Shown piece by piece: positions 8,363 through 23,141 of a DNA stretch of 64,000 bases. Source of the DNA: Bacteroidaceae bacterium. Lineage in GTDB: Bacteria > Bacteroidota > Bacteroidia > Bacteroidales > Bacteroidaceae. The notes under the pieces are model-generated. The model was not told the origin of the DNA. It saw nothing but the letters and a program-made list of their open reading frames with translations, and did no database searches. The translations under genes were made by a program, and so were the position numbers. Where the stretch lies: assembly GCA_017526905.1 (NCBI GenBank), contig JAFXQT010000090.1, forward strand, positions 6,927 through 70,926, in the 5' to 3' direction. How positions within the stretch are numbered: position 1 is the first letter of the stretch; each line of letters opens with the position of its first letter.

Positions 8363-8364
8363 TT

Positions 8365-8519: not shown

Positions 8520-8522
8520 CTG

Positions 8523-9962
8523 CTACAGCCCGTGCTTCTCGATCTTCCTGTACAACGCACCGCGGCTGATACCCAGTTCCTTGGCCACGAGCGAGAGATT
8601 ACCGGCATTTTTCTGAATGGAGGTGGCTATAGCTGCACGCTCCAAATCGTCCAACGTGGCCCCCTCCCGTCCCCCGGCCGAGGGGGCCGGGGTATGGGAG
8701 GGGGCCTCGGGTGCTCCGGGAATGACTCTTGGATTGAAGTCTTTTCCCTCTCCCATCAGCAGCGTCCTTTCAACGAGGTTCTTCAGTTCGCGTATATTAC
8801 CGCTGAGAGGTAGTGTTTGCAAATAGGCTATGGCATCTGCTCCGACTACCGGCATAGGCAGCCTGTTTGTCGTGCAGGCCTGCTGCAGGAAATAGTCAAC
8901 AAGCAACGGGATGTCCCCCCGCCTCTCGCGCAAGGGCGGCAGATGCAGGCTGATGGTGTTGATGCGGTAGAAGAGGTCCTCGCGGAAGGTGTGCTCCGCC
9001 ACCATCGTCCGCAGGTCGGCATTGGTCGCGCAGACGACGCGGACGTCGGTGCGGCGTGTGCGGCTGTCGCCCAGCACCTCGTAAGTCTGATCCTGCAACA
9101 CGCGCAACAGCTTCACCTGACAGGCCAGGTCCAGTTCGCCTATCTCGTCCAAGAAGATCGTCCCGCCGTTGGCCAGTTCGAAGCGGCCCACACGGTCCTC
9201 CTTGGCGTCGGTGAACGACCCTTTCTTGTGGCCGAACATCTCGCTCTCGAAGAGCGACGAGGAGATGCCGCCGAGGTTCACCTTCACGAAGGGACCGTTG
9301 GCACGCCGGCTCTGACGGTGTATGGCCTCGGCTATCAGCTCCTTGCCCGTGCCGCTCTCACCCGTGATGAGGACGGGGGCGTTGGTGGGTGCGATGCGGG
9401 CAATGGTGGTGTAGATAGAGGCGAGGGAGGGCAGGGGAACACCCGAGCAAGCCCCCTCCCGTCCCCCCCGAGGGGAAGCCCCCTCTAAATCCCCCCGAGG
9501 GGGGACTTGCGTTTCCATTGGGATTCCAGAGGATATGGTCGCCCCCCCTCGGGGGGGACGGGAGGGGGCCGGGGGACGGGAGTGGGCCTCGGGGGCTACC
9601 TTTATCGCTGTTTCCACCCGCTCCACCAGTACGCCATTGTCCCACGGTTTCGTGATGAAGTCGAAGGCACCGGCGCGCATACCCTGTACGGCCAGGTCGA
9701 TGGAGCCCCAGGCAGTCATCAGGATGCACGGGACGTCGGGGCGGAACACCTTGACTTGCTTCAGCAGCGTAAGGCCTTCCTCACCGTCGGTGGACATATT
9801 GTAATTCATGTCCATCAGCACCAACTCCACGGCCGGCGTGTTGCGGACGATCCGTATGGCTTCCTTGGGGCCCTCAGCCAAGGCCACCTCATATCCGTTG
9901 CGCTCCAGTATGAGCTTCAGCGAGAGCCGGATGTTCTTATCGTCATCAACTACGAGAATCAT
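8523..9962 (-). CDS. sigma54-dependent (NtrC-family) response regulator
   Basis: REC domain (MILVVDDDKNIR...LVLMDMNY...ILMTAW). AAA+ sigma54-interaction domain (VLITGESGTGKE, ESEMFGHKKGSFTDA, GGTIFLDEIGEL). Fis-type HTH (NLSLVAKELGISRGALYRKIEKHGL). There are two GC-rich in-frame insertions: one in the REC-AAA+ linker and one before the HTH. Confidence 0.9.
   Translation of the reverse strand: MILVVDDDKNIRLSLKLILERNGYEVALAEGPKEAIRIVRNTPAVELVLMDMNYNMSTDGEEGLTLLKQVKVFRPDVPCILMTAWGSIDLAVQGMRAGAFDFITKPWDNGVLVERVETAIKVAPEAHSRPPAPSRPPRGGATISSGIPMETQVPPRGDLEGASPRGGREGACSGVPLPSLASIYTTIARIAPTNAPVLITGESGTGKELIAEAIHRQSRRANGPFVKVNLGGISSSLFESEMFGHKKGSFTDAKEDRVGRFELANGGTIFLDEIGELDLACQVKLLRVLQDQTYEVLGDSRTRRTDVRVVCATNADLRTMVAEHTFREDLFYRINTISLHLPPLRERRGDIPLLVDYFLQQACTTNRLPMPVVGADAIAYLQTLPLSGNIRELKNLVERTLLMGEGKDFNPRVIPGAPEAPSHTPAPSAGGREGATLDDLERAAIATSIQKNAGNLSLVAKELGISRGALYRKIEKHGL
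8658..8706. repeat. 49-bp GC-rich imperfect palindrome inside the response-regulator CDS
   Basis: GGCCCCCTCCCGTCCCCCGGCC / GGCCGGGGTATGGGAGGGGGCC. It is translated in-frame as APSHTPAPSAGGREGA just before the HTH. Confidence 0.8.
9451..9569. repeat. 119-bp GC-rich element inside the response-regulator CDS (contains a 99-bp unit shared with 11981-12080)
   Basis: Terminal inverted repeats GCCCCCTCCCGTCCCCCCCG / CGGGGGGGACGGGAGGGGGC. The internal 9470-9568 differs from 11981-12080 by one substitution and one C in a C-run, by my manual alignment. Confidence 0.85.
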
Positions 9963-10064
9963 TATGGTATATACGTATTATCTTATCTGCCCCTTTGAGT
10001 CTGAAGGTACAGGAGGGACTTTTCCTCGGGGGCCTTTCTTTCATGAGCCTCATTGTTTATGCTG

Positions 10065-10072
10065 CAAAGATA
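10065..10072 (-). promoter_or_regulatory. Bacteroidota -7 promoter box (TAnnTTTG)
   Basis: Minus strand reads TATCTTTG, ~100 nt upstream of the response-regulator ATG (9962). Confidence 0.55.
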
Positions 10073-10210
10073 GTCAATAAAGGCAATCCAACAAATTTAT
10101 TTCCAAGAAAGGGTGTATTCAGCCGATATCTTTTAAGATTCAAGCAGAAATCTGTACCTTCTTGAGCATGAATTTGCCCTGTGCAGTAATGCGTCACTGT
10201 TCACTGACGA

Positions 10211-10236
10211 GCATCCGCTGAAACGGATTGCTTTTT
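10211..10236 (+). terminator. hairpin plus T-run (terminator-like) with no annotated gene upstream
   Basis: GCATCCG-ctgaaa-CGGAT(T)GC followed by TTTTT on the plus strand. Confidence 0.4.
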
Positions 10237-10274
10237 GGAGTGATAGAGCATGCCAGCGGCAACTTATATTTTTC

Positions 10275-10550
10275 ATTCAAGTTTCGCAAACGATGCCGTA
10301 GGCATTAGATATTGGTTCTTCGAAGTGTCGAAGCGTCCAGAGGCCGAGCGGCCAGCCATTCCTATGGCTGGTAATGTGCATGATATAGGATAGCGTGCCT
10401 TTAGGTACGCGATATCATTTGCGGTCGCATACCTAAAGGCATGCTTTATGTTGCCGCCATTTAACCAGCCACAGGAATGGCTGGCTACCAATGTCAAGCC
10501 CCTTTGGGGCTTTGGTTCACAGCGAATTAGCATACTTGCGAAACTTGAAT
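10275..10550. repeat. 276-bp long imperfect palindrome (MITE- or structured-RNA-like)
   Basis: 15-bp perfect termini: ATTCAAGTTTCGCAA (10275-10289) and TTGCGAAACTTGAAT (10536-10550). Matching internal blocks: CCAGCCATTCCTATGGCTGG (10352-10371) with CCAGCCACAGGAATGGCTGG (10465-10484), and TGCCTTTAGGTACGCGA (10396-10412) with TCGCATACCTAAAGGCA (10425-10441). Confidence 0.8.
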
Positions 10551-10554
10551 TATT

Positions 10555-10597
10555 CACTTTTCACTCTTTCACTTTTCACTCTTTACTTTTCACTCTC
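10555..10597. repeat. tandem array CACTYTT
   Basis: CACTTTTCACTCTTTCACTTTTCACTCTTTACTTTTCACTCTC. It encodes the HlyD C-terminus (...KEKLRVKSKE). Confidence 0.85.
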
Positions 10598-11913
10598 AGT
10601 TTCTCCTTCCCTTTGTACTTCGTCATATCGCTGACCACAAGCTGTTCGCCTTCGCTAAGTCCACTGACGACCTCGATGTAGTCATAGTTGCACTCGCCCA
10701 GCTGCACCTCGCGTGGCACGAGGGTCTCATCGTCCTTGAATACATATAAGGTGTACTTTCCGGGTCCAGCATAGAACGAGCCGTTGCGGATGCGGAGGGC
10801 GTCGTCCTTGATGCTGGTGATGACGTAAACCTCGGCGCGCAGCCCTGAGCGCAGGCGGGGATGGCTCATGTCATCGGGCACCACGGTGAAGGTGATGGCG
10901 CCACTTTGGCTCATGGGCGTGACGGTGTTGATGGTGCCCGCAAGGCGCTCCTTGCCGATGCGCAGTACGACGGCTCCTCCGACGCGGACTCGTTCGCTGT
11001 AGCTGTCGGAGATCTCACACTCGGCCTTGAAGTGCGTGAGGTCGCTCACCACGGCTATCTTCTGTCCGGCGCCGACGGTGCTGCCCACCTCGCTGTTGAT
11101 GTAGGTCAGCGTGGCGCGGCGCGGCGAGCGTATCTTGGCATCGTCGAGGGTGCGGCGCTTCTCGTCGAGCCCTTTCTCGAAGATATTGTTCTGCAGTTGC
11201 TGCATCCGCAGGTCGGCTTGCCGCACGCGCTGCTCGTTGCGGTACTGCTGGCGCAGCTGCGACAGTTGCAGCTGGGCGGTGCGCAGGGTGGTCTCGGCCT
11301 GCCGCACGCGGTCGCGTGTGCCGGAGCCGAGGCTGTCGAGGTAGAGCTCGTTGCGCAGCTGGGCTTCGAGCTGTGAGAGTTTCATCTCTTCCACCTCAAT
11401 CTGCATACGGCGGTCGGCGAGCTGTGTCTCTGTGTTGGCCTGCAGCTGTGCTGTCTGCTGCCTACGTATCTCGCGTTCGTCGAGCGCCTTGGCGTAATCG
11501 GTCTCGGCCGACTGCAGGTCGAGGCGCAGCAGCGGAGTGCCCACGTCCACGCTGTCGCCGCTGTGGGCATAGACCTCCAGGATCTGCGAGCTGATGGGCG
11601 ACACGATAATCTCCTCGAAGGCGGGCACGACGCGTCCCGTGGCCGTGACGCTGACATCGATGGTGCCGCGGTCCACCTCGGAGATGACGAGCGCCTTGCG
11701 GTCGAGGGCCGTCACCATCTGTGAGCCGAGCCAAGCGCCTGCGCCCAGCACGATGAGTATGGCGCCTACCAACTTTCCTATTCTCAACAGCTTATTGCGC
11801 CGTTGTACATTGACGGGGATGGCTCGGTCCATGGAAGAGGAGGACTCTCCCCCCCGCCCCTCCCTATGAGGGAGGGGAGTAGGATGTTTAAGGCTAGATG
11901 TATTCGTTTCCAT
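10576..11913 (-). CDS. HlyD-family membrane fusion (periplasmic adaptor) protein
   Basis: 445-aa ORF with an N-terminal TM anchor (LLRIGKLVGAILIVLGAGAWL), a long coiled-coil (QLADRRMQIEVEEMKLSQLEAQLRNE...) and barrel/lipoyl-like flanks. An alternative ATG at 11832 (MDRAIPV) would exclude the repeat-derived N-terminus. Confidence 0.85.
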   Translation of the reverse strand: METNTSSLKHPTPLPHREGRGGESSSSMDRAIPVNVQRRNKLLRIGKLVGAILIVLGAGAWLGSQMVTALDRKALVISEVDRGTIDVSVTATGRVVPAFEEIIVSPISSQILEVYAHSGDSVDVGTPLLRLDLQSAETDYAKALDEREIRRQQTAQLQANTETQLADRRMQIEVEEMKLSQLEAQLRNELYLDSLGSGTRDRVRQAETTLRTAQLQLSQLRQQYRNEQRVRQADLRMQQLQNNIFEKGLDEKRRTLDDAKIRSPRRATLTYINSEVGSTVGAGQKIAVVSDLTHFKAECEISDSYSERVRVGGAVVLRIGKERLAGTINTVTPMSQSGAITFTVVPDDMSHPRLRSGLRAEVYVITSIKDDALRIRNGSFYAGPGKYTLYVFKDDETLVPREVQLGECNYDYIEVVSGLSEGEQLVVSDMTKYKGKEKLRVKSKE

Positions 11914-12118
11914 TTTGTTTAATTGTCATTTAATCTGTTTACAATTCTTGAAAGGTATTTGCTCCCTCCCTCGCTCGGCTGAGGGGAAGCCCCCTCTAAA
12001 TCCCCCCGAGGGGGGACTTGCGTTTCCATTGGGAATCCAGAGGATATGGTCGCCCCCCCCTCGGGGGGGACGGGAGGGGGCTTCCCCTACAGGGAGGGCG
12101 GGGGGAGAGTCCGATTCT
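11842..12118. repeat. composite GC-rich palindromic element (type a) at the TolC/HlyD junction with a nested 100-bp unit
   Basis: Inner arm: GGACTCTCCCCCCCGCCCCTCCCtatgAGGGAGGGGAG (11842-11883). Outer arm: GGGAGGGCGGGGGGAGAGTCCG (to 12118). The nested unit is 11981-12080. The HlyD ATG (11913) lies inside the element and the TolC stop (12087) lies in the outer arm. Confidence 0.8.
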
Positions 12119-13574
12119 CAATAAAGTCCCATAGTGCGATGCTGCGCAACTGGTAGTAGTAGAGCCAGTAGTTGTAGAGTTGCGCTATGCGGCTGAGGCG
12201 TGCCTGGTCCTTGGCTGTCTGTGCGTCGGAGAGCTCGAGAGTCGAGATGCTGCCGATCTTGAAGGTCTCTACGTTCGTGTGATAGCGGCGCTGGGCGATG
12301 GTGTCGGCCTCGATGGCTATGCGCAGCTGCTCGGCCTGATTGTTGAACTGCTCGGTCAGTACGAAGATGTCCTGACGGAACTCCTGTGCCTGCTTGCGCA
12401 GCTGCCCACGCACAATCTCGCGGTTGCTCTCGGCCAGCCGCCGCTGTCCCTTGCGCTTGCCCCAGTCGAGGATAGGCACAGTGAAGCCTACCTGCACCAC
12501 CTCCTTGCTCAGCAGGTCGCGATAGGCGCCGCCCACCGAGGTGCCCGTACCCGTGTAGCCCAGTTGGGCATAGAGGTTGATGCTCTGTCGGTTGGCACGC
12601 GCCACAGCCACAGAGTAGTCGGCCTCCAACTGCCGCCGACGTATGGTCGTGGCATGAGCGTTGTTCTCGAGGGCATGGCTGAGAACGTCGTCATAGTTCA
12701 GCCGCACATCAGGGACGCCTTCTGGCACGATGGGCACGATATCCGCCTCCACATCCAGGAACGAGCGCAGGGCGAACTGGCGGGCTTGGCAGGTGCTCTC
12801 GCTGTTGGTCAGGGCGCTGCGAGCCGTGAGCATATCCAGTCGCAGCTGCAGCACATCGTTCTCGCTGATGCTGCCCATCTGGCGCTTGGCCAGAGCCACC
12901 TCGTAGAGCTTCTCGGCTGTCTGCAGATTCTGACGTGCAATGCCCACCTGCTCGATGGCCATCAGGAGATTGAAGAAATGGTTGATAGCCTGCATCGCCA
13001 CCTCCTCCGTCTCGGTGAGGAAGCGCGCCTGTGCCTCGCGGTAGCGAAGGGGTTCCAACCGCCGGCTCCACTTTACGTGGTTCACGCCGAAGAGCGGCTG
13101 CGAGAGGGTTACGGCAACGGGCAGCGACATAAGTTGGTTAAGCCCACCCCCAGCCCCTCCCTGGGGAGTGGAGTTTTGAAACTGATGAAGGAAGTCGAGT
13201 GATGATTCAATGGTGAGCGTGCCGCCCGTGGGCCATATCTTCTGCGTCACATAGAGCGAACCGTTCAGGCCTAAGTAGTCGTTGCGCACGAACGAGACGC
13301 CGCCGTCGGCCTGCTGATAGCTGGTATAGCGCTTGTTGTAGCTGGGCAGGGTGGCCGATAATGACACTTCCGGCAGCAGGTCGGCACGGTAGCTGCGCCA
13401 CTGCCAGTAGGCCGACTGCAGTTCGCCCCGCGCCACGGCAGCCTCCACGCTCTGGTTGCGCGCCATGGTGATACATTCATCGAGGCTCAGCCGCAGCGTG
13501 TCCTGCGCCAAGGTCGTGAGCCCTGCACAGGCAGTGAATGAGGCGATGATGATAATTCTTTTGACCATTTTCAT
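12087..13574 (-). CDS. TolC-family outer membrane efflux protein
   Basis: 495-aa ORF with a signal peptide (MKMVKRIIIIASFTACAGLTTLAQ). The two-repeat TolC-like sequence has the typical start LSLDECITMARNQSVEAAVARGEL. The C-terminal residues RTLPPPSL are encoded by a GC-rich repeat arm. Confidence 0.85.
   Translation of the reverse strand: MKMVKRIIIIASFTACAGLTTLAQDTLRLSLDECITMARNQSVEAAVARGELQSAYWQWRSYRADLLPEVSLSATLPSYNKRYTSYQQADGGVSFVRNDYLGLNGSLYVTQKIWPTGGTLTIESSLDFLHQFQNSTPQGGAGGGLNQLMSLPVAVTLSQPLFGVNHVKWSRRLEPLRYREAQARFLTETEEVAMQAINHFFNLLMAIEQVGIARQNLQTAEKLYEVALAKRQMGSISENDVLQLRLDMLTARSALTNSESTCQARQFALRSFLDVEADIVPIVPEGVPDVRLNYDDVLSHALENNAHATTIRRRQLEADYSVAVARANRQSINLYAQLGYTGTGTSVGGAYRDLLSKEVVQVGFTVPILDWGKRKGQRRLAESNREIVRGQLRKQAQEFRQDIFVLTEQFNNQAEQLRIAIEADTIAQRRYHTNVETFKIGSISTLELSDAQTAKDQARLSRIAQLYNYWLYYYQLRSIALWDFIENRTLPPPSL
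13142..13172. repeat. solo type-b arm inside the TolC CDS
   Basis: GCCCACCCCCAGCCCCTCCCTGGGGAGTGGAG, translated as TPQGGAGGGL. Confidence 0.75.
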
Positions 13575-13654
13575 TAGGATAAACAGGTTGAAACACGCCG
13601 GTGCTTTGTTTGCACGATGCTAATCGTGCAGGCAACAGACGAAGGTCTTTGGGG

Positions 13655-15046
13655 CTATGAATCCTGCCGCAGGGCGTCCACCGGCCGCTTGTTTACGGCT
13701 CGCCATATAGGTAGAGCGATGGCGAGGCTCACTACGCAGAGCATGATTACGTATTGGATGACACAGATGACGAGGTAGTGTATCCAGAAGATTTCCACCC
13801 AGTTGCGCTCCCGTCCCGTGCCGCTCATGCTTAGGCCATCGGAGAGGTCCATGTTGATGGCGAACTGGAACCAGATGAGCTGGCCGACGATGCAGGCCAG
13901 CAGGGTCAGCAACGCTGCCTCACCCCATACCATCCAGAAGATGTCGCGCCGCTTGGCGCCGAAGCTGCGCATGATGCCGATGTCCTCCGTGCGCTTGCGC
14001 AGTTGCAGCCAGAAGGTGCCCAGGGTGCCGAGGACGACGTTCAGCAGGAAGAGGGCAAGGAGGATGCCGAGGAGGGTGTTGGTGAGGTTGTAGTCTCTGT
14101 TGCCACTCCATGAAGACAGCCAATCTTCATAGGTCTGCACAGAGACGAGGATGCGGTCGCCGGCTTTTCTAAGCGCTTGGGATGCGGGACTTGTAAGCTG
14201 GTTCAGAAATGCCTGTGCATCAACTTCGGGATGTAGGCGAATGAGCATCTGCGGGGTTGCATACTCTTCGATTATAGGAGTCAGAATGGAATAGGCATAG
14301 CGATCATTCTGCTGCAAGCGGAAATCTTCGACAACACCCGCGATGGTGTAGCGGCTGACGATGACCGGCCCGCCTTGCTCCTGCAGCGCACGGTCGCTGA
14401 AGTCCCATTCCACTATGCGGCGCCCCACGACTTGGTCGGTATCGAATAGCGCCTGTGCCAGACTGCGGGTGATGACCACGCCGTCCAAAGGACAATCCTC
14501 GGAGAGTTCCTTTGCCGAAGGACTGCCCTCAATGGGCGTCAGACCCTGCGTCTCGAAGAACTGCTCATGTAGCAGAAACCCCTGCATGTAGGCTCCGCAC
14601 CTGCGCGTGGAATCCGTCTCGGAAGCATTGGAAATGATGTTGTAGGTACCTAGGCCAATGATGTGCCTGGCAAAGCCTGCATACTGCACCTCGGGCAGAG
14701 CACGGATCTGGTCGCGAAGGGCGTAGAGGGAGGACCGGCCCTCGACCTGAAGCCCATCCAGCCCACCCCCAGCCCCTCCCTGGGGAGGGGAGCTTGTTTC
14801 CGCTTGCCCACTGCCAGTTTGGACTCCCCTCCCCAGGGAGGGGTCGGGGGTGGGCTGTTGGATTCCCGTCTGCCCCACCAACAAGTGTTCCCGCTCAAAC
14901 TCTCCGGCGGGACTACAGAAATAACGGTCGTAGGTGGTTACGACGAAGTGGTCAATGAAGTAGAAACTGAGGACGGTGATGAGGATAATCTCGGCAAAGA
15001 CCCAACCGTTCTGACGGCGGTGGGACCAGAGGCTCTTGCGTATCAT
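13655..15046 (-). CDS. ABC transporter permease, FtsX/MacB type (B-type paralog, B3)
   Basis: FtsX-like C-terminal 3-TM block with GAKRRDIFWMV. N-terminal TM plus a large periplasmic domain. I chose the start at 15046 (MIRKSLW) because it forms an ATGA overlap with the upstream stop. The ORF is open to 15094. Confidence 0.8.
   Translation of the reverse strand: MIRKSLWSHRRQNGWVFAEIILITVLSFYFIDHFVVTTYDRYFCSPAGEFEREHLLVGQTGIQQPTPDPSLGRGVQTGSGQAETSSPPQGGAGGGLDGLQVEGRSSLYALRDQIRALPEVQYAGFARHIIGLGTYNIISNASETDSTRRCGAYMQGFLLHEQFFETQGLTPIEGSPSAKELSEDCPLDGVVITRSLAQALFDTDQVVGRRIVEWDFSDRALQEQGGPVIVSRYTIAGVVEDFRLQQNDRYAYSILTPIIEEYATPQMLIRLHPEVDAQAFLNQLTSPASQALRKAGDRILVSVQTYEDWLSSWSGNRDYNLTNTLLGILLALFLLNVVLGTLGTFWLQLRKRTEDIGIMRSFGAKRRDIFWMVWGEAALLTLLACIVGQLIWFQFAINMDLSDGLSMSGTGRERNWVEIFWIHYLVICVIQYVIMLCVVSLAIALPIWRAVNKRPVDALRQDS
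14761..14855. repeat. complete 95-bp type-b palindromic element inside permease B3 CDS
   Basis: GCCCACCCCCAGCCCCTCCCTGGGGAGGGGAG - 32 nt - CTCCCCTCCCCAGGGAGGGGTCGGGGGTGGGC. In-frame, translated as PTPDPSLGRGVQTGSGQAETSSPPQGGAGGGL. Confidence 0.9.
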
Positions 15047-16539
15047 TTCTTCTGATTTAACGATTCGACAATAGGTTTGCGTAGTGAGGTCCATGACGGT
15101 ATGAGGGCGACCATGAGGTTGAGGACGACGCAGCAGAGGAAGACGATGAGGAAGAGCGTGGGCGTGACGAACATCTTGGGGTCCAACGTGATATCACCTG
15201 TGAGGTTGCCTTCGCGGAGGATGAACGCCTGGAACAAGGCCGTATGACGGACGGCAAGGTAGAACAGCCAAGAGAGCACCCAACCCACGAGACCTCCGCA
15301 GCACGTTAGGACGAGGTTCTCGCGAATGACCTCGCGCAGCAGCGTGCGCCGCTTGGCTCCGAAGGCCTTGCGGATACCCATCTCTGCCCGCCGTGCTTCC
15401 ATGCGGTTGCTAACGAGACCGCTGAGGTTCAGGGCTGGCAGCAGCAGGAAGATAAGCATCAGGATGGCTGGCGGCATCAGGTTCTTGGCCTTGTCGGAAG
15501 TGGACTCATCATCGGAGTGGAAGAAGGAGAAGCACACGAAGAAATGTGACTTAGCATCCAGGGTGAAGTGCACCGGCTCACCTTCAACTGAACTCTGTGC
15601 CGCCTCATAGCGTCGGCACAGCGGCTCCAGCTCCTTCAGGAAGTCATCGCGCGAATAGCCCTTCTTCAGCAGCACACGCACGCTGAGGTTCCCTTGATAG
15701 TTGCTAGGATTAGATTCGGTATAGCTCAGACTCTTGCCAAGGCTGGGGACATAGATCTCTGCGTATGAAGTATCCATCAATGGGCTGGTTCTCTTGATGA
15801 CACCGATGATGCGGTAGGGGACGGAGTTGATGTAAATAAAAGAGGAGGAGCCCACCCCTAACCCCTCCCCAAGGGAGGGGGATTCGTTTCCGCTGGTATT
15901 TCTCTTTTGTTTTTTTTCTGCCACTTTGGACTCCCCTCCCTTGGGGAGGGGATGGGGGTGGGCCGATTCAAGGTGGGCCACCCCTATCTTTTCCAACAAC
16001 TTATCCGTCACCACACACACCTGCTCGCCATTGCGGAACTCCTGTTCGTTGAAAGGGCGGCCTTCGAGGAATTGGAAGTCATAGAGTTGAAAGAAGCGGT
16101 GGTCGCAGAATATGGCCTTCACGGAGTTTTGGGGGTTATTGGATACTGCCGATATGGAATCAACTGTAATCTCCCGATAAGGGTCCACTCGCAACCCTGT
16201 TGCCACCTCCACGCACTCCAGCTTACTGAACAACTCATCGACGGCCAAGGTGCTGCAGCCTGAGTAGAGTGGATCGCCTATCTCGCTGTCTTTGTATTGC
16301 AAGGCGGTGACATACAACGTGCGGTCGCGATGCTTCTCCGGGTAGATATTCGCCATCTTGACATTAAGCAGGATGGCCACTACCATAGCCGAGGCAATGG
16401 CCACCGCCGTGCCCGCGACGTAGATGGCGGAGAACAACTTGTCCTCACGGATGAGGGAGAAGGCGTGGGAGACCCACCCCCAACCCCTCCCTGTGAGGGA
16501 GGGGAGTAGATAGTCTTTAACCCAAAATGATATGTTCAT
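15043..16539 (-). CDS. ABC transporter permease, FtsX/MacB type (A-type paralog, A3)
   Basis: N-terminal TM motif LFSAIYVAGTAVAIA. MacB-like periplasmic domain. C-terminal FtsX block (FGAKRRTLLREVIRENL). It contains a complete 114-bp GC-rich element in-frame. The ATG lies inside an intercistronic element. Confidence 0.8.
   Translation of the reverse strand: MNISFWVKDYLLPSLTGRGWGWVSHAFSLIREDKLFSAIYVAGTAVAIASAMVVAILLNVKMANIYPEKHRDRTLYVTALQYKDSEIGDPLYSGCSTLAVDELFSKLECVEVATGLRVDPYREITVDSISAVSNNPQNSVKAIFCDHRFFQLYDFQFLEGRPFNEQEFRNGEQVCVVTDKLLEKIGVAHLESAHPHPLPKGGESKVAEKKQKRNTSGNESPSLGEGLGVGSSSFIYINSVPYRIIGVIKRTSPLMDTSYAEIYVPSLGKSLSYTESNPSNYQGNLSVRVLLKKGYSRDDFLKELEPLCRRYEAAQSSVEGEPVHFTLDAKSHFFVCFSFFHSDDESTSDKAKNLMPPAILMLIFLLLPALNLSGLVSNRMEARRAEMGIRKAFGAKRRTLLREVIRENLVLTCCGGLVGWVLSWLFYLAVRHTALFQAFILREGNLTGDITLDPKMFVTPTLFLIVFLCCVVLNLMVALIPSWTSLRKPIVESLNQKK
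15850..15963. repeat. complete 114-bp type-b palindromic element inside permease A3 CDS
   Basis: GCCCACCCCTAACCCCTCCCCAAGGGAGGGGG - 51 nt (including T8) - CTCCCCTCCCTTGGGGAGGGGATGGGGGTGGGC. In-frame, translated as HPHPLPKGGESKVAEKKQKRNTSGNESPSLGEGLGVG. Confidence 0.9.
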
Positions 16540-16616
16540 ATAATAATCTTTTTGCTAATCTGCACTTGAAAGTTACCACTCCCCTCCCTTTAGGGAGGGG
16601 CCGGGGGTGAGTCTGA
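16471..16616. repeat. composite type-b element filling the ATPase/permease-A3 junction
   Basis: Arms at 16471-16509 and 16576-16616 are inverted copies, ~80% identical by eye. The A3 ATG (16539) lies in the spacer. The ATPase stop (16617) abuts the outer arm. Confidence 0.8.
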
Positions 16617-17435
16617 TTACTGAATCTGCCGTCCATCCAAGAACTTAATAATCCTGTCCGTCTGCTGGGCCTGCTTCTCGTTGTGCGTCACCATGACAAT
16701 GGTGCGGCCGTCCTCTTTGTTCAGCTTATGCAGCAGCTCCATAATCTCGGCACCCATCTTCGAGTCGAGGTTACCTGTGGGCTCGTCGGCGAGGAGGATC
16801 TCGGGGTTACCGATGATGGCGCGGGCGATGGCTACGCGCTGGCACTGACCACCTGAGAGTTGCGTTGGGCGGTGCTTCATTCGGTGTGAGAGGCCTACGC
16901 GGGCTATGACTTCCTTGGCCAAGCGTGTGCGCTCGCTGCGGCCTACGCCACGATAGATGAGGGGCAGCATCACGTTGTCCAGGACGTTCAGCGTCGGGAT
17001 GAGGTGGAAGCTCTGGAAGACGAAGCCCAGCGTGCGGTTGCGGATCTCCGCCAGGCGGTTGTCGCTCATGTGCGGGTCGATGCGCTGTCCGCACAGTTCT
17101 ATCTCGCCGCTGGTGGGTTCGTCCAGCAAGCCCATGATGTTCAGCAGGGTCGATTTGCCGCAGCCCGAAGGTCCCATGATGCTCAGGAACTCACCCTTCT
17201 GCACTTCGATGTTCACGTTCTCCAACGCCTGTGTCTCCACTTCGTCGGTGCGGTAGATTTTGTTGATCTCAGTGAGCTTAATGGAAGACCCTCCTCCCGA
17301 GGACTCTCCCCCCGCCCTCCCTTGTAGGGAGGGAGCAGATACCATTTGACCGTTAGCGTTCTGCTGGGTTGTCGAATTCGCTTGTTTGTTTGGTTGGTTA
17401 CTTACTTGGTTGTCGGAATTAACTTGAGTATTCAT
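16617..17435 (-). CDS. ABC transporter ATP-binding protein (MacB/LolD-like)
   Basis: Walker A ([12 protein letters not shown]), signature ([14 protein letters not shown]), Walker B ([11 protein letters not shown]) and H-loop (VTHN). A ~50-aa Q/N-rich N-terminal extension ending in [13 protein letters not shown] is repeat-derived. Confidence 0.9.
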
Positions 17436-17539
17436 ACTTTTAGTATTTATTGGTTATTAACTTGTTCCTAATTTACTTCTATTCTTGAAAGGTGACCACT
17501 CTCCTCCCTACAAGGGAGGGGCTGGGGGGGGGAGGGTCC
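17301..17539. repeat. composite type-a element filling the fused-permease/ATPase junction
   Basis: Arms: GGACTCTCCCCCCGCCCTCCCttgtAGGGAGGGAGC (17301-17336) and its inverted copy with complementary loop acaa (17496-17539). The ATPase ATG (17435) lies in the spacer. The fused-permease stop (17541) abuts the outer arm. Confidence 0.85.
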
Positions 17540-17540
17540 T

Positions 17541-20060
17541 CTACTCTTCCTTTATTGCCTCCGTTATCCTCGTCCTGCTTATCCTCCACGCAGGGATTGC
17601 CGTTCCGATGAGCACGGTGCCTAATATAATAAGGTACACGCACGCGGAGACGATGAGGAAGTGGGTGCCGAAGCTGTCGAACCAGAGGTTTTTGGGACCA
17701 TCGGTGACGAGTTCCCCAGTGAAGAGCCCCTTGGAGGCCGCTATCTGGAAATAGATGATGCAGCCGAGAACGACGCTGACGGACGTGAGCAGCCATGCTT
17801 CGCGCAGGAAACCGAGGAACACGCTGCGCCGCGTGGCGCCGAAGGCACGCCGCACGCCAGCCTCCTCGCGCCGTTGCTGTGTGTACATCAGTAGGGAACC
17901 GAAGACACCGAAGGCTAGGTTCACGGCAAAGAAAGCTGCTATGAGCAGGTTGCGGCGGTTATGACCGTTCACACCGATACGCTCCGTCCGTTGCTCCAGA
18001 GCTTTCTGGCCTGGCTGCATCTGGCGTATATAGAGGTGTTCCGTCACCAAGCCACGCATCAGCTGCTCTCCACGCTCCTCGATGAAGCGGGTGGCATTCA
18101 CGCCATCGCGCAGCCGAAGAATGATTGGCGGCGTTGTCGTTCCTTCGGTGGTGCAACGGAACACCATGGAGCGGTCGCGGTCGAAAGCGTCGGCACGCAC
18201 GTCCTCCACCACGGCACGGATGCGATAGGGTTGCCAGTGCTGCTGCTGTCCGTCATCCCAATCCCAGAAGTAGCTCTGCACCTGTCGGCCGGCCACGTCT
18301 GTAGTGCCGAAGAGCGCTGTGGCAAAGGAACGGGTGACGATGATGTCCCGGTCATACTCGCAGCCCTGCGACAGCTCGCTTGTGGGCACGCCGGGCGTGA
18401 TGGACTGAATACCGAATATCTCGAACAGCGGAGAGCCCGGCCGGAACGAGTAATGGAAGGCGGTGAGTGTGTCGCCATCGACGCAATACTCGCGTGCTGT
18501 TGTTGGAGAGTAGAACACGGGAGCCACGCCGTCGGCGACGTATGCCCTCTCCACTCCCTCACACTCCTTCACCTTTTCCAGGAGGTGGTGTATTTCGTCG
18601 TCGTAGGAATAGATTTGATGGTCCGACTCCTGCTGGCGATAGCTGCTGGCGATTTGCAGTTGCACCACCTTCTCGGCATCATAGCCCAGAGGCATGTGTG
18701 TGATGAAAGCGTTCACGGTAACGGGGTCGAAGGTCCACCAACAAACCACTGTCACGAGCGTGAGTTCGGCCGCCAGCCACACCTTCGAGCGCCATCCGCC
18801 GCCTTCGCCCTGCTCCTCTTTCATCATGCCCTTCACAATGGGTTGTCTCAGGCTGAGCCAGGCAGGCAGTGCCGCTGCCAGCAGGTTCAGCAGCAGGCAT
18901 ACGAGCAATGCTGTGAGGAAGATGGCGGGAGCAAAAAGCATCTCGCCTTTCAACACAGGCACCGTCGCGTAGATGCCATTGCGGGTGGCGAAGAGATCAA
19001 AGACCCAGTCGCGCCAAGCGTAGATGGCCATCCACGCCAGGAAGAGTCCTACGGCGCCGCCGATGAGCGTCAGCCGCAGATTCTCCTTGATGACCAGCCT
19101 GAGCAGCGTGCGCCGCTTGGCACCGAAGGCCTTACGGACGGCCATCTCCGGCAGACGGTGTTGCATCCGGGCGGCCACCATGCCGCTGAGGTTCAGGGCC
19201 GGCACCAACAAAAGCAGCAGGATGGAGAGGGCCACGTACCACCAGAGGCTGTGGCTGTTGTCCGCCAGGAATACGGCGGTGAGTCCTTGCCACACGCTGG
19301 AATAATGCGATATGACAGAGGATTGAAGATCAATGGGAGTGTCTGTATTGACGCTGTTGTAGCGTGCTTGCACCTCCTTCAGTTCCTCGAAGAAGGCCTC
19401 GCGCTTGTCCTCTGCTACGGCAAAGCGAACAGCGAAAGGGACGTTCTCATAGGTTAAGGTAATCCCATTCACCACGAATACACCCTCGGCCATGTACGGC
19501 AGGTAGATGTCGGCACAGCAATTCTCTGTCAGCACCGATGGCGTTTCCACGATTCCACAGATGCGGTATTCCCGGTTGTTGAGCACGAGCGTTCCCCCCT
19601 GTTCCAATCCTTGTCGCCTGGCCAAGTCCTCGGTGACGACCGCCACGCAGCGGCGGCTGTCCATATCGTCCTCGGTGAACGGCGCCCCGCTTACGAAGCG
19701 GAACTGATAGAAGCGGAAGAAGGCAGGGTCGGTGACGATGGCGTTCACGCGGCGGTCGCGCAGGCCGTCGTGTTGCCGAATATAGTAGTTTTCCGGGTTA
19801 TAGAGCTGCGCCACCGCCGTCGCGCAGTCCGGAGTCTGCATCGATGTGGTAAGCTCGTGCTGAAGCCAGTGCCCTATCATCGTCACTTCTTTCTTATTCT
19901 GAAGTGAGGCAGCAAAGTTCATCGTGTACGTCCGGCTGCGGTTCACCTCTGGCGCGATGTCGGCCACTTTCACGTAGTAGATCTCGGCAATGACCATCGT
20001 GAAGGCGATGGCGATGGCGGTGCCGAGGATATAGATGGTGGAGAAAAGCTTATTATTCAT
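17541..20060 (-). CDS. fused double FtsX/MacB-type permease (A-type half + B-type half)
   Basis: 839-aa ORF. Residues ~1-405 align with A-type permeases (LFSTIYILGTAIAIAF ... FGAKRRTLLRLVIKENL ... LRQPIVKGMMKEE). Residues ~415-839 align with B-type permeases (LAAELTLVTVVCWWTFDPV ... FGATRRSVFLGF ... AWRISRTRITEAIKEE). The start overlaps the upstream stop by 8 nt. Confidence 0.8.
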   Translation of the reverse strand: MNNKLFSTIYILGTAIAIAFTMVIAEIYYVKVADIAPEVNRSRTYTMNFAASLQNKKEVTMIGHWLQHELTTSMQTPDCATAVAQLYNPENYYIRQHDGLRDRRVNAIVTDPAFFRFYQFRFVSGAPFTEDDMDSRRCVAVVTEDLARRQGLEQGGTLVLNNREYRICGIVETPSVLTENCCADIYLPYMAEGVFVVNGITLTYENVPFAVRFAVAEDKREAFFEELKEVQARYNSVNTDTPIDLQSSVISHYSSVWQGLTAVFLADNSHSLWWYVALSILLLLLVPALNLSGMVAARMQHRLPEMAVRKAFGAKRRTLLRLVIKENLRLTLIGGAVGLFLAWMAIYAWRDWVFDLFATRNGIYATVPVLKGEMLFAPAIFLTALLVCLLLNLLAAALPAWLSLRQPIVKGMMKEEQGEGGGWRSKVWLAAELTLVTVVCWWTFDPVTVNAFITHMPLGYDAEKVVQLQIASSYRQQESDHQIYSYDDEIHHLLEKVKECEGVERAYVADGVAPVFYSPTTAREYCVDGDTLTAFHYSFRPGSPLFEIFGIQSITPGVPTSELSQGCEYDRDIIVTRSFATALFGTTDVAGRQVQSYFWDWDDGQQQHWQPYRIRAVVEDVRADAFDRDRSMVFRCTTEGTTTPPIILRLRDGVNATRFIEERGEQLMRGLVTEHLYIRQMQPGQKALEQRTERIGVNGHNRRNLLIAAFFAVNLAFGVFGSLLMYTQQRREEAGVRRAFGATRRSVFLGFLREAWLLTSVSVVLGCIIYFQIAASKGLFTGELVTDGPKNLWFDSFGTHFLIVSACVYLIILGTVLIGTAIPAWRISRTRITEAIKEE

Positions 20061-21387
20061 CTTTCAAAGCCTCGTTGATATTCGTTCTCGTAATGCGCCA
20101 CGCCGGAATAGCCGTTCCGATGAGCACGGTGAGTAATATAATAAGGTACACGCACGCGGAGATGACGAGGAAATGGGGCCAAAAGTGGTCGGGCCAGGTC
20201 ATGTCCGAGGGGATGTTGACGAGTCGCGGAACATAGAGCTTTTCGCTGTAGGTGAAGCCGTTCTCGAGGGTGGAGTAACCGCTGTGGGCGTAGTTCAGGT
20301 AAATGATGAGCCCGACGGCAACAGCGGCGGTTGCGAGGGCGGCGTTGCGCAGTAACATCTCCCAGAGCAGACGCAGTTTCGTAGCTCCGAAGGCGCGGCG
20401 GACGCCACACTCCTCTGTGCGGCGCTTGGCGTGAAACCACACGGTGCCGATGACGGCCAGGCAGAGGTTGACGAGGAAGAAGAGGGCGAGGGCCAGACTG
20501 CGGTTTACCTCCTGTGTGCGGCCGTCGTCGAGCTCCAATTGCTGTAGGTGGTCGTCGTAGGTCATGAGGCGGCTGACACGGGTGTAGTTGGTGCGTGCGT
20601 TGCGGATGAGGTCGCGGCCGTGCTCCTCCACGAAGCGTCGGGCGTCCACGCCATGCTTCAGACGGATGACGAAGCGGCAGCGGGTGGTGGTCAGGTTTTC
20701 GGGTTGGAAGATGAGCGAACGCATGTTGTAGCCCAACGACTTGCGGATGTCCTCCACCACGCCTGCCACCGTCACCTCAGACTCTGGGTTGTAGCAGAAC
20801 GTGAGGCGACGCCCCACCACATCTGCGGAGCCAAACAGCGCCATGGCACTGGTACGTGTCAGCACCACCTTCTGCTCCGACCTTTTGATACACGAGAGCT
20901 CCTCGGCCGACGGGCTGCCAGGCAGGGGCTGCAGGCCGTAGGTCTCGAAGAAGTGGGAGTCGGGGATGAAGGCGAGCCAGCCCATATAAAGCGTATCGGC
21001 CTCGTGGCGACATGGGGAATAAGTCTCGTTGGTATGACCGATAGACCAAAGGTCCTGGTCGTAGAGATAGGCTGATTCCACGCCCTCCACGGTCGTGAGC
21101 TGGCGCGTCATCTGCTGCCGCCGTTCCTCGGTAATGTTGTACGGATCGCTCATCTCCTCTTCCGATGCCTCCTCTGATGGGCTCACGGTACATTCGCCAT
21201 AGAGCAGGCGGTTGGTGTCGTAGCCAAGGGGCAGACTGCGATAGTAGAGGTTGACGACGGCGGGGTCGAAGACCACCCAGGCAACGACGGTAATGATGAC
21301 GAGCTCGAGGAAAAGGACGGACTCTCCCCCCGCCCTCCCTGTTAGGGAGGGAGCGGAATGTATTTGACTGGCTGTATTCATTTTCAT
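20053..21387 (-). CDS. ABC transporter permease, FtsX/MacB type (B-type paralog, B1)
   Basis: B-type N-terminal TM (LFLELVIITVVAWVVFDP) and C-terminal FtsX block (FGATKLRLLWEM ... AWRITRTNINEALKDE). The first 23 codons (MKMNTASQIHSAPSLTGRAGGES) lie in a GC-rich element. Confidence 0.8.
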   Translation of the reverse strand: MKMNTASQIHSAPSLTGRAGGESVLFLELVIITVVAWVVFDPAVVNLYYRSLPLGYDTNRLLYGECTVSPSEEASEEEMSDPYNITEERRQQMTRQLTTVEGVESAYLYDQDLWSIGHTNETYSPCRHEADTLYMGWLAFIPDSHFFETYGLQPLPGSPSAEELSCIKRSEQKVVLTRTSAMALFGSADVVGRRLTFCYNPESEVTVAGVVEDIRKSLGYNMRSLIFQPENLTTTRCRFVIRLKHGVDARRFVEEHGRDLIRNARTNYTRVSRLMTYDDHLQQLELDDGRTQEVNRSLALALFFLVNLCLAVIGTVWFHAKRRTEECGVRRAFGATKLRLLWEMLLRNAALATAAVAVGLIIYLNYAHSGYSTLENGFTYSEKLYVPRLVNIPSDMTWPDHFWPHFLVISACVYLIILLTVLIGTAIPAWRITRTNINEALKDE

Positions 21388-21480
21388 TTATGTTTTATTG
21401 TTCATTTAATCTTTTTAAGTGTTTACCATCCTTGAAGGTATTTGCTCCCTCCCTAACAGGGAGGGCGGGGGGAGAGTCCG
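21319..21480. repeat. composite type-a element filling the permease-A1/B1 junction
   Basis: Arms: GGACTCTCCCCCCGCCCTCCCtgttAGGGAGGGAGC (21319-21354) and GCTCCCTCCCTaacaGGGAGGGCGGGGGGAGAGTCCG (21443-21480). They are near-perfect inverted repeats. The B1 ATG (21387) lies in the spacer. The A1 stop is at 21485. Confidence 0.9.
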
Positions 21481-21484: not shown

Positions 21485-22825
21485 TTATTGCTTTTCCATC
21501 ATTGATTGGACAATAGGTTTACGCAAGCACCACCACGCAGGCACGACGGCGGCGAGGAGGTTGAGGAGGAGAATGGCTGCAAAGGCGCCGAGGAAGAGTG
21601 CGGGAGCAAAGAGCATCTCACCCGAGACGAGGGGTGCTGAGCTGAGGGTGCTGTTATCGAAGAACATACCGAGAATTTCACGGCGGAAACCATAGATGGC
21701 CAGCCAAGCGAGTACAAGTCCGATGATGCCTCCGATGGTTGTCATCACCAGATTCTCCCACACCACCTGATGTAAAAGCGTGCTGCGACGTGCTCCGAAG
21801 GTCTTGCGCACAGCCATCTCTGCCGACCGTCGCTCCATGCGTCCCGCCACAATGCCGCAGAGGTTCAACGCCGGCACGAAGAGCAACACGAAGAGGATGC
21901 CCGCGTAGTGCCGAAAGAGCTGCCAACCCGAAGGCACCTCGAACTCGCCATCGCGGTTCTCTGCGCGCAGCACGTGCATCGGGTGCGTCGCCATATTCCT
22001 TGTCAGTACCATCTTCATTTTCACTCCTTCGCCGAAACCGAAATTCGAGCAGATGTCGGGATTCGTTTGCTGAATACGTGCCGCCACTCCATCGAGTTCA
22101 GTCTTCAGCGCTTGTAAGTGCTCGTTGTCTTTCACTGTAGCCACGATGGAGAATATGCCTTGGTAAGGCGAGCCGCCACAGAAATCCACGAGGTTATAGG
22201 GTACGATGAAATCGGCATAGCTGTCGGGCGTGAGCTGACTGCCGCTGCGCACCACGCCCACCACACGCGCCTCGTTGAAGTTTTCCAAGCCGACCATTTG
22301 CCCCACGGCGTCCACGCCCTTGCCGAACAGCCGCTCAGCCAGCGCATCGGAGATGACACAGACTGACTCATGCCCATCCACTTCTTGTTTCGTGAAGGGC
22401 CGTCCGCTCACGAAGTCGTACTCGTAGATCTTGAAGAAGTCGGCGTTGGTCCAATTCCTGACGACGTCGAAGTACTCATTGTCGAACTTAGCATATTCGT
22501 GGCTGCGGCTTTCAGACTTTCCCGTGCCAGCGGCGAGCAGCGTGGGGGCGCAGTACTCGATGTTCGGGCTGGCTGCGAACCACTCCTCGAACGCCTTCGG
22601 GCTAAAGCCTGTCTTTCCCATCCCGCCGTTCTCGGCCTCGATGTAAATGCCCTCGAAATAGACCGTCCGCGCCCGGTTCCTCTCAGGGTAGATGGGCGCC
22701 AACTTGATGTAATACACTACGGCCATCACCATCGTGAAGGCAATGGCCAAGGCCGTTCCCACGATGTATATGCCGGAGAAAAGCCGTTCCTCGCGCAGCA
22801 GGGCGAGGGCTTGGCGAAAATACAT
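21485..22825 (-). CDS. ABC transporter permease, FtsX/MacB type (A-type paralog, A1)
   Basis: A-type motif LFSGIYIVGTALAIAF and FtsX block FGARRSTLLHQVVWENL. I chose the start at 22825 (MYFRQALALL). The ORF is open to 22906, but that extension (MNSERMNSNK...) is encoded by a CATTCTTTC repeat array. Confidence 0.75.
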   Translation of the reverse strand: MYFRQALALLREERLFSGIYIVGTALAIAFTMVMAVVYYIKLAPIYPERNRARTVYFEGIYIEAENGGMGKTGFSPKAFEEWFAASPNIEYCAPTLLAAGTGKSESRSHEYAKFDNEYFDVVRNWTNADFFKIYEYDFVSGRPFTKQEVDGHESVCVISDALAERLFGKGVDAVGQMVGLENFNEARVVGVVRSGSQLTPDSYADFIVPYNLVDFCGGSPYQGIFSIVATVKDNEHLQALKTELDGVAARIQQTNPDICSNFGFGEGVKMKMVLTRNMATHPMHVLRAENRDGEFEVPSGWQLFRHYAGILFVLLFVPALNLCGIVAGRMERRSAEMAVRKTFGARRSTLLHQVVWENLVMTTIGGIIGLVLAWLAIYGFRREILGMFFDNSTLSSAPLVSGEMLFAPALFLGAFAAILLLNLLAAVVPAWWCLRKPIVQSMMEKQ

Positions 22826-22883
22826 GATGACTTTACTGTTCATTCTTTCCCCGTCGGCAAAACCGACGAGCACACTTTTATTA

Positions 22884-22950
22884 CTGTTCATTCTTTCACT
22901 ATTCATTCTTTCACTTCTCTTTCTATTCTCATTCTTTCTATTCTTCTTTC
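22884..22950. repeat. tandem array CATTCTTTC-like
   Basis: It lies between permease A1 and the permease remnant. A further copy is at 22835-22850, next to the hairpin CCGTCGGCAAAACCGACG. Confidence 0.8.
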
Positions 22951-23108
22951 AATGCCTCAGTGATCTCGCTGCGGCAAATCCTCCAGGCAGGTATTGCGGT
23001 TCCGATGAGCACGGTGCACAATATAATAAGGTACACGCACGTGGAGACCACGAGGAAGTGGGAGCCGAAGCTGTCGAACCAGTAGTGGATGTTGGGATTG
23101 TGGCCCGA
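22938..23108 (-). pseudogene. 3'-terminal remnant of a B-type FtsX permease gene
   Basis: My hand translation of the minus strand gives SGHNPNIHYWFDSFGSHFLVVSTCVYLIILCTVLIGTAIPAWRICRSEITEALKEE*. This aligns with the last ~55 aa of the B-type permeases (e.g. WFDSFGTHFLIVSACVYLIILGTVLIGTAIPAWRISRTRITEAIKEE). There is no upstream coding sequence, and tandem repeats flank it. Confidence 0.65.
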
Positions 23109-23111
23109 GCG

Positions 23112-23138: not shown

Positions 23139-23141
23139 TAC

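Follow-up and report, generated by a model that had tools for sequence, protein, structure and literature searches.

The 64,000-nucleotide stretch analyzed here (hereafter the window; Bacteroidaceae bacterium, GenBank assembly GCA_017526905.1, contig JAFXQT010000090.1, positions 6,927 to 70,926) has a G+C content of 57.8% and carries, on its minus strand, a transporter gene cluster in which several intercistronic junctions are occupied by composite GC-rich palindromic elements, the subject of this study. According to open reading frame (ORF) calls and Pfam searches, the genes follow one another in the direction of transcription as a MacB/FtsX-type permease (21485-22906), a second permease (20053-21387), a double permease of 839 aa (17541-20060), an ABC ATPase (16617-17435), two further permeases (15043-16539 and 13655-15094), a TolC-like OEP (12087-13574), a HlyD-like fusion protein (10576-11913), a sigma-54 response regulator (8523-9962) and a histidine kinase (6902-8362), all on the minus strand. 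An earlier description made from these letters by eye (the sequence-only reading) had placed an element at every junction of the operon, which proved wrong, as composites occupy four of about nine junctions, two others (20053-20060 and 15043-15094) are overlaps, and the three spacers at 13575-13654, 9963-10575 and 8363-8522 carry no composite-type element.

All four composites do have the build described in that reading, a pair of inverted GC-rich arms with an AT-rich spacer (27-35% GC) between them, and all are read on the minus strand. E4 (21319-21479), between the permease genes 21485-22906 and 20053-21387, has its outer arm at 21444-21479, a spacer at 21355-21443 (27% GC) with an ATG at 21387, and an inner arm at 21319-21354 whose translation reads APSLTGRAGGES; a repeat search gave its inverted arms as 43 nt with 95% complementarity, the predicted RNA fold is a 38-bp stem (-95.8 kcal/mol, z = -13.9), and the copy in a related strain differs by a loop change. 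E3 (17301-17539), between the 839-aa permease and the ABC ATPase, combines a type-b-like outer arm (17496-17539) with an inner arm of type a (17301-17336) and a spacer (17337-17494) with ATGs at 17435 and 17345. E2 (16471-16614), between the ABC ATPase and the permease 15043-16539, has an outer arm at 16576-16614, a spacer at 16510-16577 with an ATG at 16539, and an inner arm at 16471-16509, read as LPSLTGRGWGW, with a predicted fold of -81.8 kcal/mol (z -9.0). E1 (11842-12112), between the OEP and HlyD-like genes, has an inner arm at 11842-11882, a spacer at 11883-11960 with an ATG at 11913, and an outer arm split into two pieces (11961-11971 and 12089-12112), since a 117-nt palindromic element of a third kind (type c, 11972-12088) is nested in the loop of its hairpin; 99 nt of this insert are 91% identical to 9470-9568, a copy in the response-regulator gene. 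The OEP stop codon (TAG, 12087-12089) bridges the junction between the nested insert and the distal arm piece, of which it takes in the first base, and comparison with L126, a syntenic operon from a related genome with a longer OEP C-terminus, shows that E1 displaced about 14 C-terminal codons of the OEP gene.

The arm sequences and reading frames of these composites bear out most of what had been proposed for them. Both arm consensi were recovered as given, with five window matches to the type-a arm at up to three mismatches (0.00 expected) and nine to the type-b arm (0.02 expected). The upstream stop codons do lie in or against the outer arm, those at 16617, 17541 and 21485 being 1-6 nt ahead of it and that at 12087 falling in the E1 loop, and the longest downstream ORFs begin within the spacers (11913, 16539, 17435 and 21387) and run through the inner arm. 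In two composites the loops of the two arms had also been said to be complementary, each pair hence behaving as a single unit; complementarity holds for E3 (TTGTA/TACAA) and E4 (TGTTA/TAACA), but not as a general rule, being found in 24 of 43 pairs of related loci, and the window loops are of the commonest types, so that we do not accept it as proof that a pair moves as one.

Beyond the four composites, the window holds eight or more further copies that the sequence-only reading had not noted; the majority lie within genes and in frame, and the in-gene copies, like E2, are predicted to fold into RNA stems similar to that of E4. Two short type-b elements lie on the minus strand in adjacent permease genes: E5 (14759-14857; arms plus a 31-nt spacer; -86.1 kcal/mol), in frame in the gene 13655-15094, encodes QPTPDPSLGRG...PPQGGAGGGL, has no counterpart in the L126 ortholog, and has a diverged copy at the same site of L114, a related strain, while E6 (15850-15963; 52-nt spacer), in frame in the gene 15043-16539, is missing from L126 and represented in L114, at the same site, by a different arm subfamily. 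Also on the minus strand, a single type-b arm contributes 12 codons (TPQGGAGGGL) in frame to the OEP gene (13141-13176), the L126 OEP having a related G-rich stretch at the matching place; a type-c element (9449-9570) lies in frame in the linker of the response-regulator gene 8523-9962, and a single type-c hairpin (8657-8692) lies elsewhere in the same gene. On the plus strand, a single type-b arm (37864-37899), read in frame as AHPQPLPKGGE in gltB (36032-40669), coincides with a gap when the protein is aligned to solved GltB structures, and a half element comprising the leader ATG and a degenerate type-a arm (40721-40784) forms the first 22 codons of gltD, residue 23 of the window protein being the first to which solved GltD chains align. 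A further half element on this strand, a leader plus type-a arm (5018-5108), is intergenic and out of frame; it sits inside an array of GATAAGA/GATAAAA heptamers (4966-5134, downstream of the ORF 4301-4984), and since the array surrounds these 91 nt, the insertion has clean boundaries. A second small GC hairpin in gltB (CCCCTCCGCCGGGGAGGGG, 38014-38032) corresponds to a five-residue insertion relative to the solved GltB structures, and may be a decayed arm.

The family extends well beyond this genome. We scanned metagenome-assembled genomes (MAGs) with an exact 21-mer of the type-a arm, which gives a lower bound, and found at least 113 stretches carrying it, each from a different genome species and all from Prevotellaceae/Bacteroidales, with rumen as the source of nearly all matches whose record titles state one. 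With at least 14 arms in the window and this distribution across species, the arms are clearly multi-copy, as the sequence-only reading had supposed. In the 113 loci (0.86 Mb) plus the window, 222 arms of about 36-45 nt were detected at up to three mismatches, together with 80 inverted arm pairs. The commonest pair lengths are 115 and 118 nt, 121 nt forming a smaller class, and a single length class modulo 3 accounts for 24 of 31 short elements. Among the 24 elements no longer than 118 nt (109-118 nt), 23 lie in a frame that is open for at least 50 codons, and usually hundreds, on both sides. Longer pairs (about 125-270 nt) hold stop codons, and in 34 of the 80 pairs the inner arm is crossed by an ORF of at least 80 codons that begins at an internal ATG and typically reads ...APSL(T/I/Q)GRAGGES; in 14 of these 34 the upstream ORF ends at the outer arm. 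The arms end in (G/A)GACTC, GTAG occurring only in some variable loops. No Rfam family matched the window at the gathering threshold. The exact type-a arm was absent from a viral contig collection, and a phage vector was rejected on this basis. A possible -7 promoter motif of the Bacteroides type (TAnnTTTG) was noticed beside many left arms (e.g. GGTTACCTTTG).

Comparison of filled and empty alleles bears on whether the elements supply the start codon of the downstream gene, as had been proposed for all four. Protein searches sorted orthologs of the ABC ATPase into length classes: a 225-aa class, about 90% identical over the shared part, begins METVIKLTGINKIY, so that the element-free start is METVIKLT and filled alleles read ...GRAGGES-VIKLT, and classes of 252-281 aa begin M...(S/T)(A/T)PS(L/P)...G(E/G)(S/A)-VI(K/R)LT, with several arm subtypes and nested inserts. 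At the E4 site, orthologs of the permease with 432 aa begin MKLNNILNANTWLFLELV, and filled alleles read ...GRAGGES-VLFLELV or ...RGVGGEA-FLFLELI. Near-identical relatives (P0248/P0267, P0281/P0285 and P0310/P0295) differ only in being filled or empty, and the proteins of element-free relatives (the 225-aa and 432-aa alleles) are 85-92% identical. L126 likewise is without E2, an E3-type extension and both in-gene elements. Orthologs therefore show empty sites rather than the conserved N-termini that would have been expected of ordinary coding sequence. Genes with an element have lost the native start, and their reading frame runs from the spacer ATG through the inner arm. Past that arm, the next in-frame ATG, GTG or TTG of the ATPase is codon 66, beyond the conserved N-terminal strand; that of the E4 permease, codon 38, falls midway through the first transmembrane helix; and for the E2 permease it is codon 35, a TTG where L114 has CTC. 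Because no usable in-frame start lies between the arm and the conserved sequence, the comparative frames support the view that E2, E3 and E4 supply the start codon in use. For E1 the proposal is not supported: the HlyD gene behind it retains its native ATG at 11832 (MDRAIPV, compared with the native start MDREIPV in L126) just past the arm, so the donated ATG is not needed. We also considered whether the E2 spacer could be the native 5' end of the permease gene, given the likeness of MNISFW to the native MISKF, and rejected this; both spacer ends align to the element consensus, and the likeness is therefore taken as coincidence.

Strain L114, with about 96% DNA identity to the window, has elements at the same junctions and in-gene sites, and these are of a different arm subfamily (with CCCCTCTCC stems) and have spacers of other lengths. 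When L114 (6700-9300) is set against the window (17540-14700), the arm subfamily differs at E3, E2 and E6, and the spacer length differs at the E5 site; despite the arm change, palindromy is kept, and the spacer ATG is still in frame with the conserved protein. Such differences at fixed sites suggest rapid concerted replacement, and subfamily swaps between strains this similar point to ongoing gene conversion or re-insertion. The search for the operon in metagenome contigs returned two near-identical contigs only, the empty sites coming from protein searches.

A candidate parent of the composites was found in the related loci, where, in six of seven arm pairs spaced 450-4000 nt apart, the same small gene is all that lies between the arms. 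The gene encodes a 121-aa DUF559 protein (PF04480, E 4.6e-33) of the Vsr-type PD-(D/E)xK endonucleases, which matches a Neisseria endonuclease-like protein (PDB 3HRL, E 4e-16) and, more distantly, a homing endonuclease of the Vsr fold, I-Bth0305I (E 0.002 to 3R3P, 'mobile intron protein'); Steczkiewicz et al. place Vsr, DUF559 and I-Bth0305I in one group (PMC3424549). Homologs form more than 1100 clusters, of which those with a named source come from Prevotella or 'Bacteroidaceae' genomes, and DUF559 residues are strongly conserved across 116 homologs. Inverted arms flank the gene in 14 of 14 copies, seven of them matched by tblastn in the arm-picked loci and seven chosen by protein identity alone, with arms disregarded. 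The cassette is always sense-oriented between co-directional host genes, with its left arm abutting the upstream stop; the nuclease ATG follows 14-44 nt past a fully aligned left arm (70 nt in a single copy whose ungapped arm match was truncated), which leaves little room for a promoter of its own. At the other end, an ATG that overlaps the nuclease stop or follows it closely (ATGA or ATGAATAA) reads through the right arm into the host gene, and the host genes are diverse (fmt, leuA-like, argB-like, HAD phosphatase, ribF, acyl-CoA synthetase, amidohydrolase and ABC ATPase). One cassette, L094, is truncated, with 48 nuclease codons left.

Both ends of this cassette have aligned counterparts in the spacers of E1 and E4. 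At the left end, the E1 spacer and the 5' leader of the L031 nuclease agree at 16 of 16 nt (ACCTTTCAAGAATTGT), a stretch followed by a ATGGATTAT remnant; at the right end, the alignment covers the leader ATGAATACA..CAGTCAAATACATTC. From this match of spacer ends to cassette ends it follows that the composites are internal-deletion derivatives. The nucleases form two clades, with mostly 76-96% identity within and 65-72% between them (those of L025 and L140 being about 66-74% identical to their own groups), and the clades track type-a versus type-b arms across different insertion loci. At one junction shared by L129 and L140 (CLC channel, DUF559, fmt), a type-a cassette is present in one species and a type-b cassette in another, and in L137, L141 and L143 the gene stands between a membrane fusion protein (MFP) gene and an ABC ATPase followed by FtsX, in MacAB-type efflux operons like that of the window.

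Taken together, we consider it probable, at roughly 70%, that the composites are non-autonomous derivatives, of the MITE kind (MITEs being miniature transposable elements with inverted repeats), that arose by deletion from a small mobile cassette common in rumen Prevotellaceae. Among the roles listed in the sequence-only reading, namely mobile MITE, messenger RNA (mRNA) punctuation that sets paralog stoichiometry and translational coupling, mobility is the one backed by evidence. The elements have terminal inverted repeats, small size, no transposase and many copies, and derive by internal deletion from a longer coding element whose protein is no known transposase. The full cassette measures about 480-640 bp, with GC-rich terminal inverted repeats of about 36-45 nt, each a hairpin, around the DUF559 gene, whose start lies in a short AT-rich stretch, and the downstream host protein would carry some 20 aa as a fused leader (M-N-T-S-S-Q-I-H-S-A-P-S-L-x-G-R-A-G-G-E-S). 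Were the nuclease ORF lost, arm, AT-rich spacer with ATG, and arm would remain (E1-E4), in effect a portable stretch between cistrons that brings a start site with it; if the stops and the ATG went as well, the 109-121-nt forms found in genes as Pro/Gly/Ser-rich linkers would result, and single arms would be the last remnants. Transcription of the cassette would come by read-through from the host operon, and ribosomes ending the upstream gene or the nuclease gene may re-initiate at the spacer ATG, a terminating ribosome on the outer arm holding the long stem open. Bacteroidota mostly initiate on unstructured A/U-rich leaders and not at Shine-Dalgarno sites.

As for mobility, the DUF559 nuclease might start it by cutting arms, hairpins or target junctions, with repair then copying the element in. 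Short of proof, such a break-and-copy or gene-conversion route is favored over cut-and-paste because target duplications are missing and the junction is replaced, and also because of the loop nesting, the filled and empty relatives and the wholesale swaps of arm subfamily. A bolder proposal, which we hold tentatively and at somewhat less than even odds, is that this DUF559 clade comprises the mobilizing nucleases of an unrecognized class of mobile element, with coevolving hairpin ends, that seeds translated palindromes by the hundred inside genes; the cassette, of about 0.5 kb, would lodge at cistron boundaries and 'pay' for its place by re-initiating translation of the next gene.

Several observations weigh against an origin from a mobile cassette or complicate it. 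No target-site duplication was found, 60 of 77 pairs having no adjacent direct repeat and none having one longer than 3 nt, and no conserved target motif was found around the arm pairs, so the mode of insertion is obscure. The native segment at filled sites is replaced and not merely interrupted, for which a single cut-and-insert event is insufficient, and no ligating or strand-transfer activity was identified; the nuclease alone cannot account for integration. The 64-kb window itself contains no DUF559 gene, and recurrence of the cassette at the same junctions (CLC-fmt and MFP-ABC) also fits old, vertically inherited and possibly domesticated genes. With regard to translation, ORF logic and comparative frames indicate that the arms are probably translated (a predicted arm-derived peptide is, for example, MNTASQIHSAPSLTGR), and a 38-bp GC stem right after the ATG should impede ribosomes. 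Lastly, nearly all related sequences are metagenome-assembled.

The absence of target-site duplications is also what would be expected if the arms were repetitive extragenic palindromic (REP) sequences, or doublets of these (REPINs), moved in trans by a single-copy Y1 transposase of the REP-associated (RAYT) or IS200-like kind, the DUF559 gene being cargo or simply a gene that tolerates bracketing. Hairpin arms of about 36 nt, GC-rich and often in inverted doublets with a spacer, would suit this explanation, as would the type-c element nested in a hairpin loop and the RAYT-like Y1_Tnp gene that adjoins the syntenic L126 operon. That gene, however, is flanked by unrelated repeats (GGATCA..CCGTCCCC..TGATCC), and it is the only Y1 homolog in 1.04 Mb comprising the arm-picked loci, later loci and the window, compared with seven DUF559 genes in the 0.86 Mb of arm-picked loci. 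The arm ends carry no conserved GTAG or CGTC tag, most copies, unlike REPs, lie within or are fused to coding sequence, and both the match of the MITE interiors to the DUF559 cassette ends and the covariation of nuclease clade with arm type tie the arms to the nuclease, which leaves a Y1-driven system unlikely. The composites might instead be kept by the host as operon punctuation, their stems setting mRNA processing or stability or enforcing translational coupling. Very stable stems (-82 to -96 kcal/mol, z -9 to -14), a start codon in an AT-rich loop directly past the upstream stop, the L114 junctions that are still occupied with palindromy kept although the arms have changed, and an ATPase junction that is filled in many orthologs all fit a host function of this sort. 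Yet close relatives with 85-92% identical proteins do without the elements (the 225-aa and 432-aa alleles and L126), only four of the roughly nine cluster junctions carry a composite, and the same elements occur in unrelated genes, within coding sequence and, out of frame, in an intergenic array. Punctuation is thus an improbable account of what the composites are, and such a role could be a secondary addition.

Bacteroidales are rich in invertons, and perfect inverted repeats of 36-43 nt bracketing a short segment with a start codon could be read as a switch in which a recombinase flips the spacer and so turns the downstream start on or off; flipping would preserve the arm-encoded peptide, the arms being inverted repeats. 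We regard this as very improbable, as E4 has the same orientation on two independent metagenome contigs of the lineage (three assemblies compared: the window, L114 and L115), orthologous short elements in L064, L069 and L092 show a single orientation relative to the gene, spacers are as short as 31 nt and have ends homologous to a gene cassette, and a genome with hundreds of identical repeats would be open to ectopic inversions. As to whether there is a repeat family at all, the P/G/S-rich, low-complexity look of the peptides is the one feature that would suit ordinary N-termini or chance palindromes, a view with practically no probability left, being refuted by the many copies in unrelated genes, a chance expectation of about zero and the empty-site orthologs.

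With a mobile-cassette origin as the preferred explanation, the elements can be compared to systems described elsewhere, and the likening to the translated Rickettsia palindromic elements (RPEs) and to the intercistronic bacterial interspersed mosaic elements (BIMEs), already drawn in the sequence-only reading, is apt as an analogy, as is that to REPs. As with RPEs, palindromes of about 100-150 bp lie in frame in ORFs without disrupting them, are carried as an extra peptide, and exist in many copies per genome. The sequences and the phylum are unrelated, however, the arms are very GC-rich in a genome of 55-58% GC, and, in contrast to RPEs, a subset of the Prevotellaceae elements at cistron boundaries supplies a start codon and the full-length members carry a nuclease gene; we know of no protein encoded by RPEs. 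Membership in RPE-1 to RPE-10 is implausible by C/G-run composition and host phylum, so that the elements may be said to work like RPEs, not to be RPEs. With the REPs, BIMEs and REPINs of proteobacteria they share GC-rich imperfect palindromes of 20-40 nt in inverted doublets, location in operon intergenic regions and stable mRNA hairpins, and with REP/RAYT systems the lack of target duplications and the presence of repeats flanking the gene of a presumed mobilizing enzyme. The partner here is a PD-(D/E)xK nuclease of the DUF559 family and not a Y1 HUH transposase, and the arms do not flank a Y1 gene in the 1.04 Mb of arm-bearing DNA, a sample that does not amount to whole genomes. Moreover, the arms are mostly translated and not extragenic (23 of 24 short elements lie in ORFs, and 34 of 80 pairs form gene N-termini), and the spacer carries a start codon. 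The 5' end of REPs carries a conserved GTAG or CGTC tetranucleotide (PMC3733652), which the arms do not have.

The cassette itself resembles free-standing homing endonuclease genes (e.g. phage T4 seg/mob and I-Bth0305I) in being a small nuclease gene between host cistrons, probably expressed from the host transcript, and in its same-site presence and absence among close relatives; DUF559 is a sequence relative of I-Bth0305I and so belongs to a family with known homing members, as the 3R3P match indicates. It differs in being bracketed by long inverted hairpin repeats and in having hundreds of non-coding derivatives at many sites, unlike in classical homing, and filled and empty alleles of one site were seen for the derivative elements, with only filled sites for nuclease-bearing cassettes. 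The Correia repeat enclosed elements (CREEs) of Neisseria, enterobacterial repetitive intergenic consensus (ERIC) elements and intergenic repeat units (IRUs) are similar in being MITE-like, about 100-150 bp long and co-transcribed, with long stems, some of them lying at or inside ORF ends and altering expression. Correia elements have TA target duplications, promoters and integration host factor sites and are AT-richer, and we know of no Correia or ERIC element that derives from a nuclease cassette or systematically supplies start codons. The GC clusters of yeast mitochondria are short GC-rich palindromes in AT-rich DNA, found in frame in var1 and polymorphic among strains; in contrast to the elements described here, they are organellar, much shorter, and without a known cassette in which such repeats flank a nuclease gene.

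Other repeats and remnants were noted in and around the cluster. Beside the element-free operon of L126 (9998-10807), the RAYT-like Y1 gene is accompanied by REP-like hairpins of its own and then by tandem arrays; the gene and its hairpins would amount to another repeat system of these bacteria, distinct from the first. In the window, heptamers of AATGACG/TCGTCAT (7409-7675) are translated in frame in the histidine-kinase gene, giving a 77-aa insertion (GMTNDES..., SSFVTRHSS...) that is not in the syntenic L126 kinase; the same heptamers fill the spacer between regulator and kinase (8357-8524) and recur 35 kb away (43127-43208). In a fused carA-carB gene (23271-26108), an 8-nt tandem repeat in the linker (AAGGTTTT, 24941-25019) is translated to give PQNLITLKPQDLKTLKPQNL, and short arrays stand at gene ends (10540-10600, 22880-22940, 23110-23150 and 60280-60398; GTGAAAA heptamers and the 12-mer AACTCCCTCTTT). 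The genome seems unusually rich in tandem arrays at cistron boundaries. The 612-nt spacer between the HlyD and response-regulator genes (9963-10575) contains paired hairpins, gccagccattcctgtggctgg and ccagccataggaatggctggc, with no Rfam match, and could be a promoter region or an uncharacterized RNA. A C-terminal piece of a truncated FtsX permease (22940-23100, minus strand), immediately upstream of the first permease gene, looks like the remnant of another permease paralog. The idea that E4 had split an 800-aa two-module permease was rejected; all 120 of the 120 best C-half orthologs are 429-464 aa long, so the permease split is older than E4.

A search of the literature, mostly outside subscription journals, found no description of this family or of translated palindromes in Prevotella or Bacteroidota, in keeping with the statement of the sequence-only reading that no such family was known from the phylum, and no DUF559 genes bracketed by, or linked to, repeats. 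Set against known translated palindromes of the MITE or REP-like kind, what is unusual is the nuclease cassette, together with start codons that are donated systematically. The finding extends in-frame translated palindromes from Rickettsia to abundant gut and rumen Bacteroidota, where the elements rewrite N-termini, C-termini and linkers at many loci and thereby affect gene calling and annotation in MAGs. They would also represent a natural, portable translation-start module in a phylum that, to our knowledge, largely does without Shine-Dalgarno-led initiation, and the turnover of arm subfamilies could be followed in metagenome time series. The link to a candidate enzyme makes both the mobility of the elements and the role of the DUF559 domain experimentally approachable; if the proposed part of the nuclease is true, it would give this widespread domain its first biological role, and would offer a testable mechanism for the spread of RPE-like in-frame palindromes.

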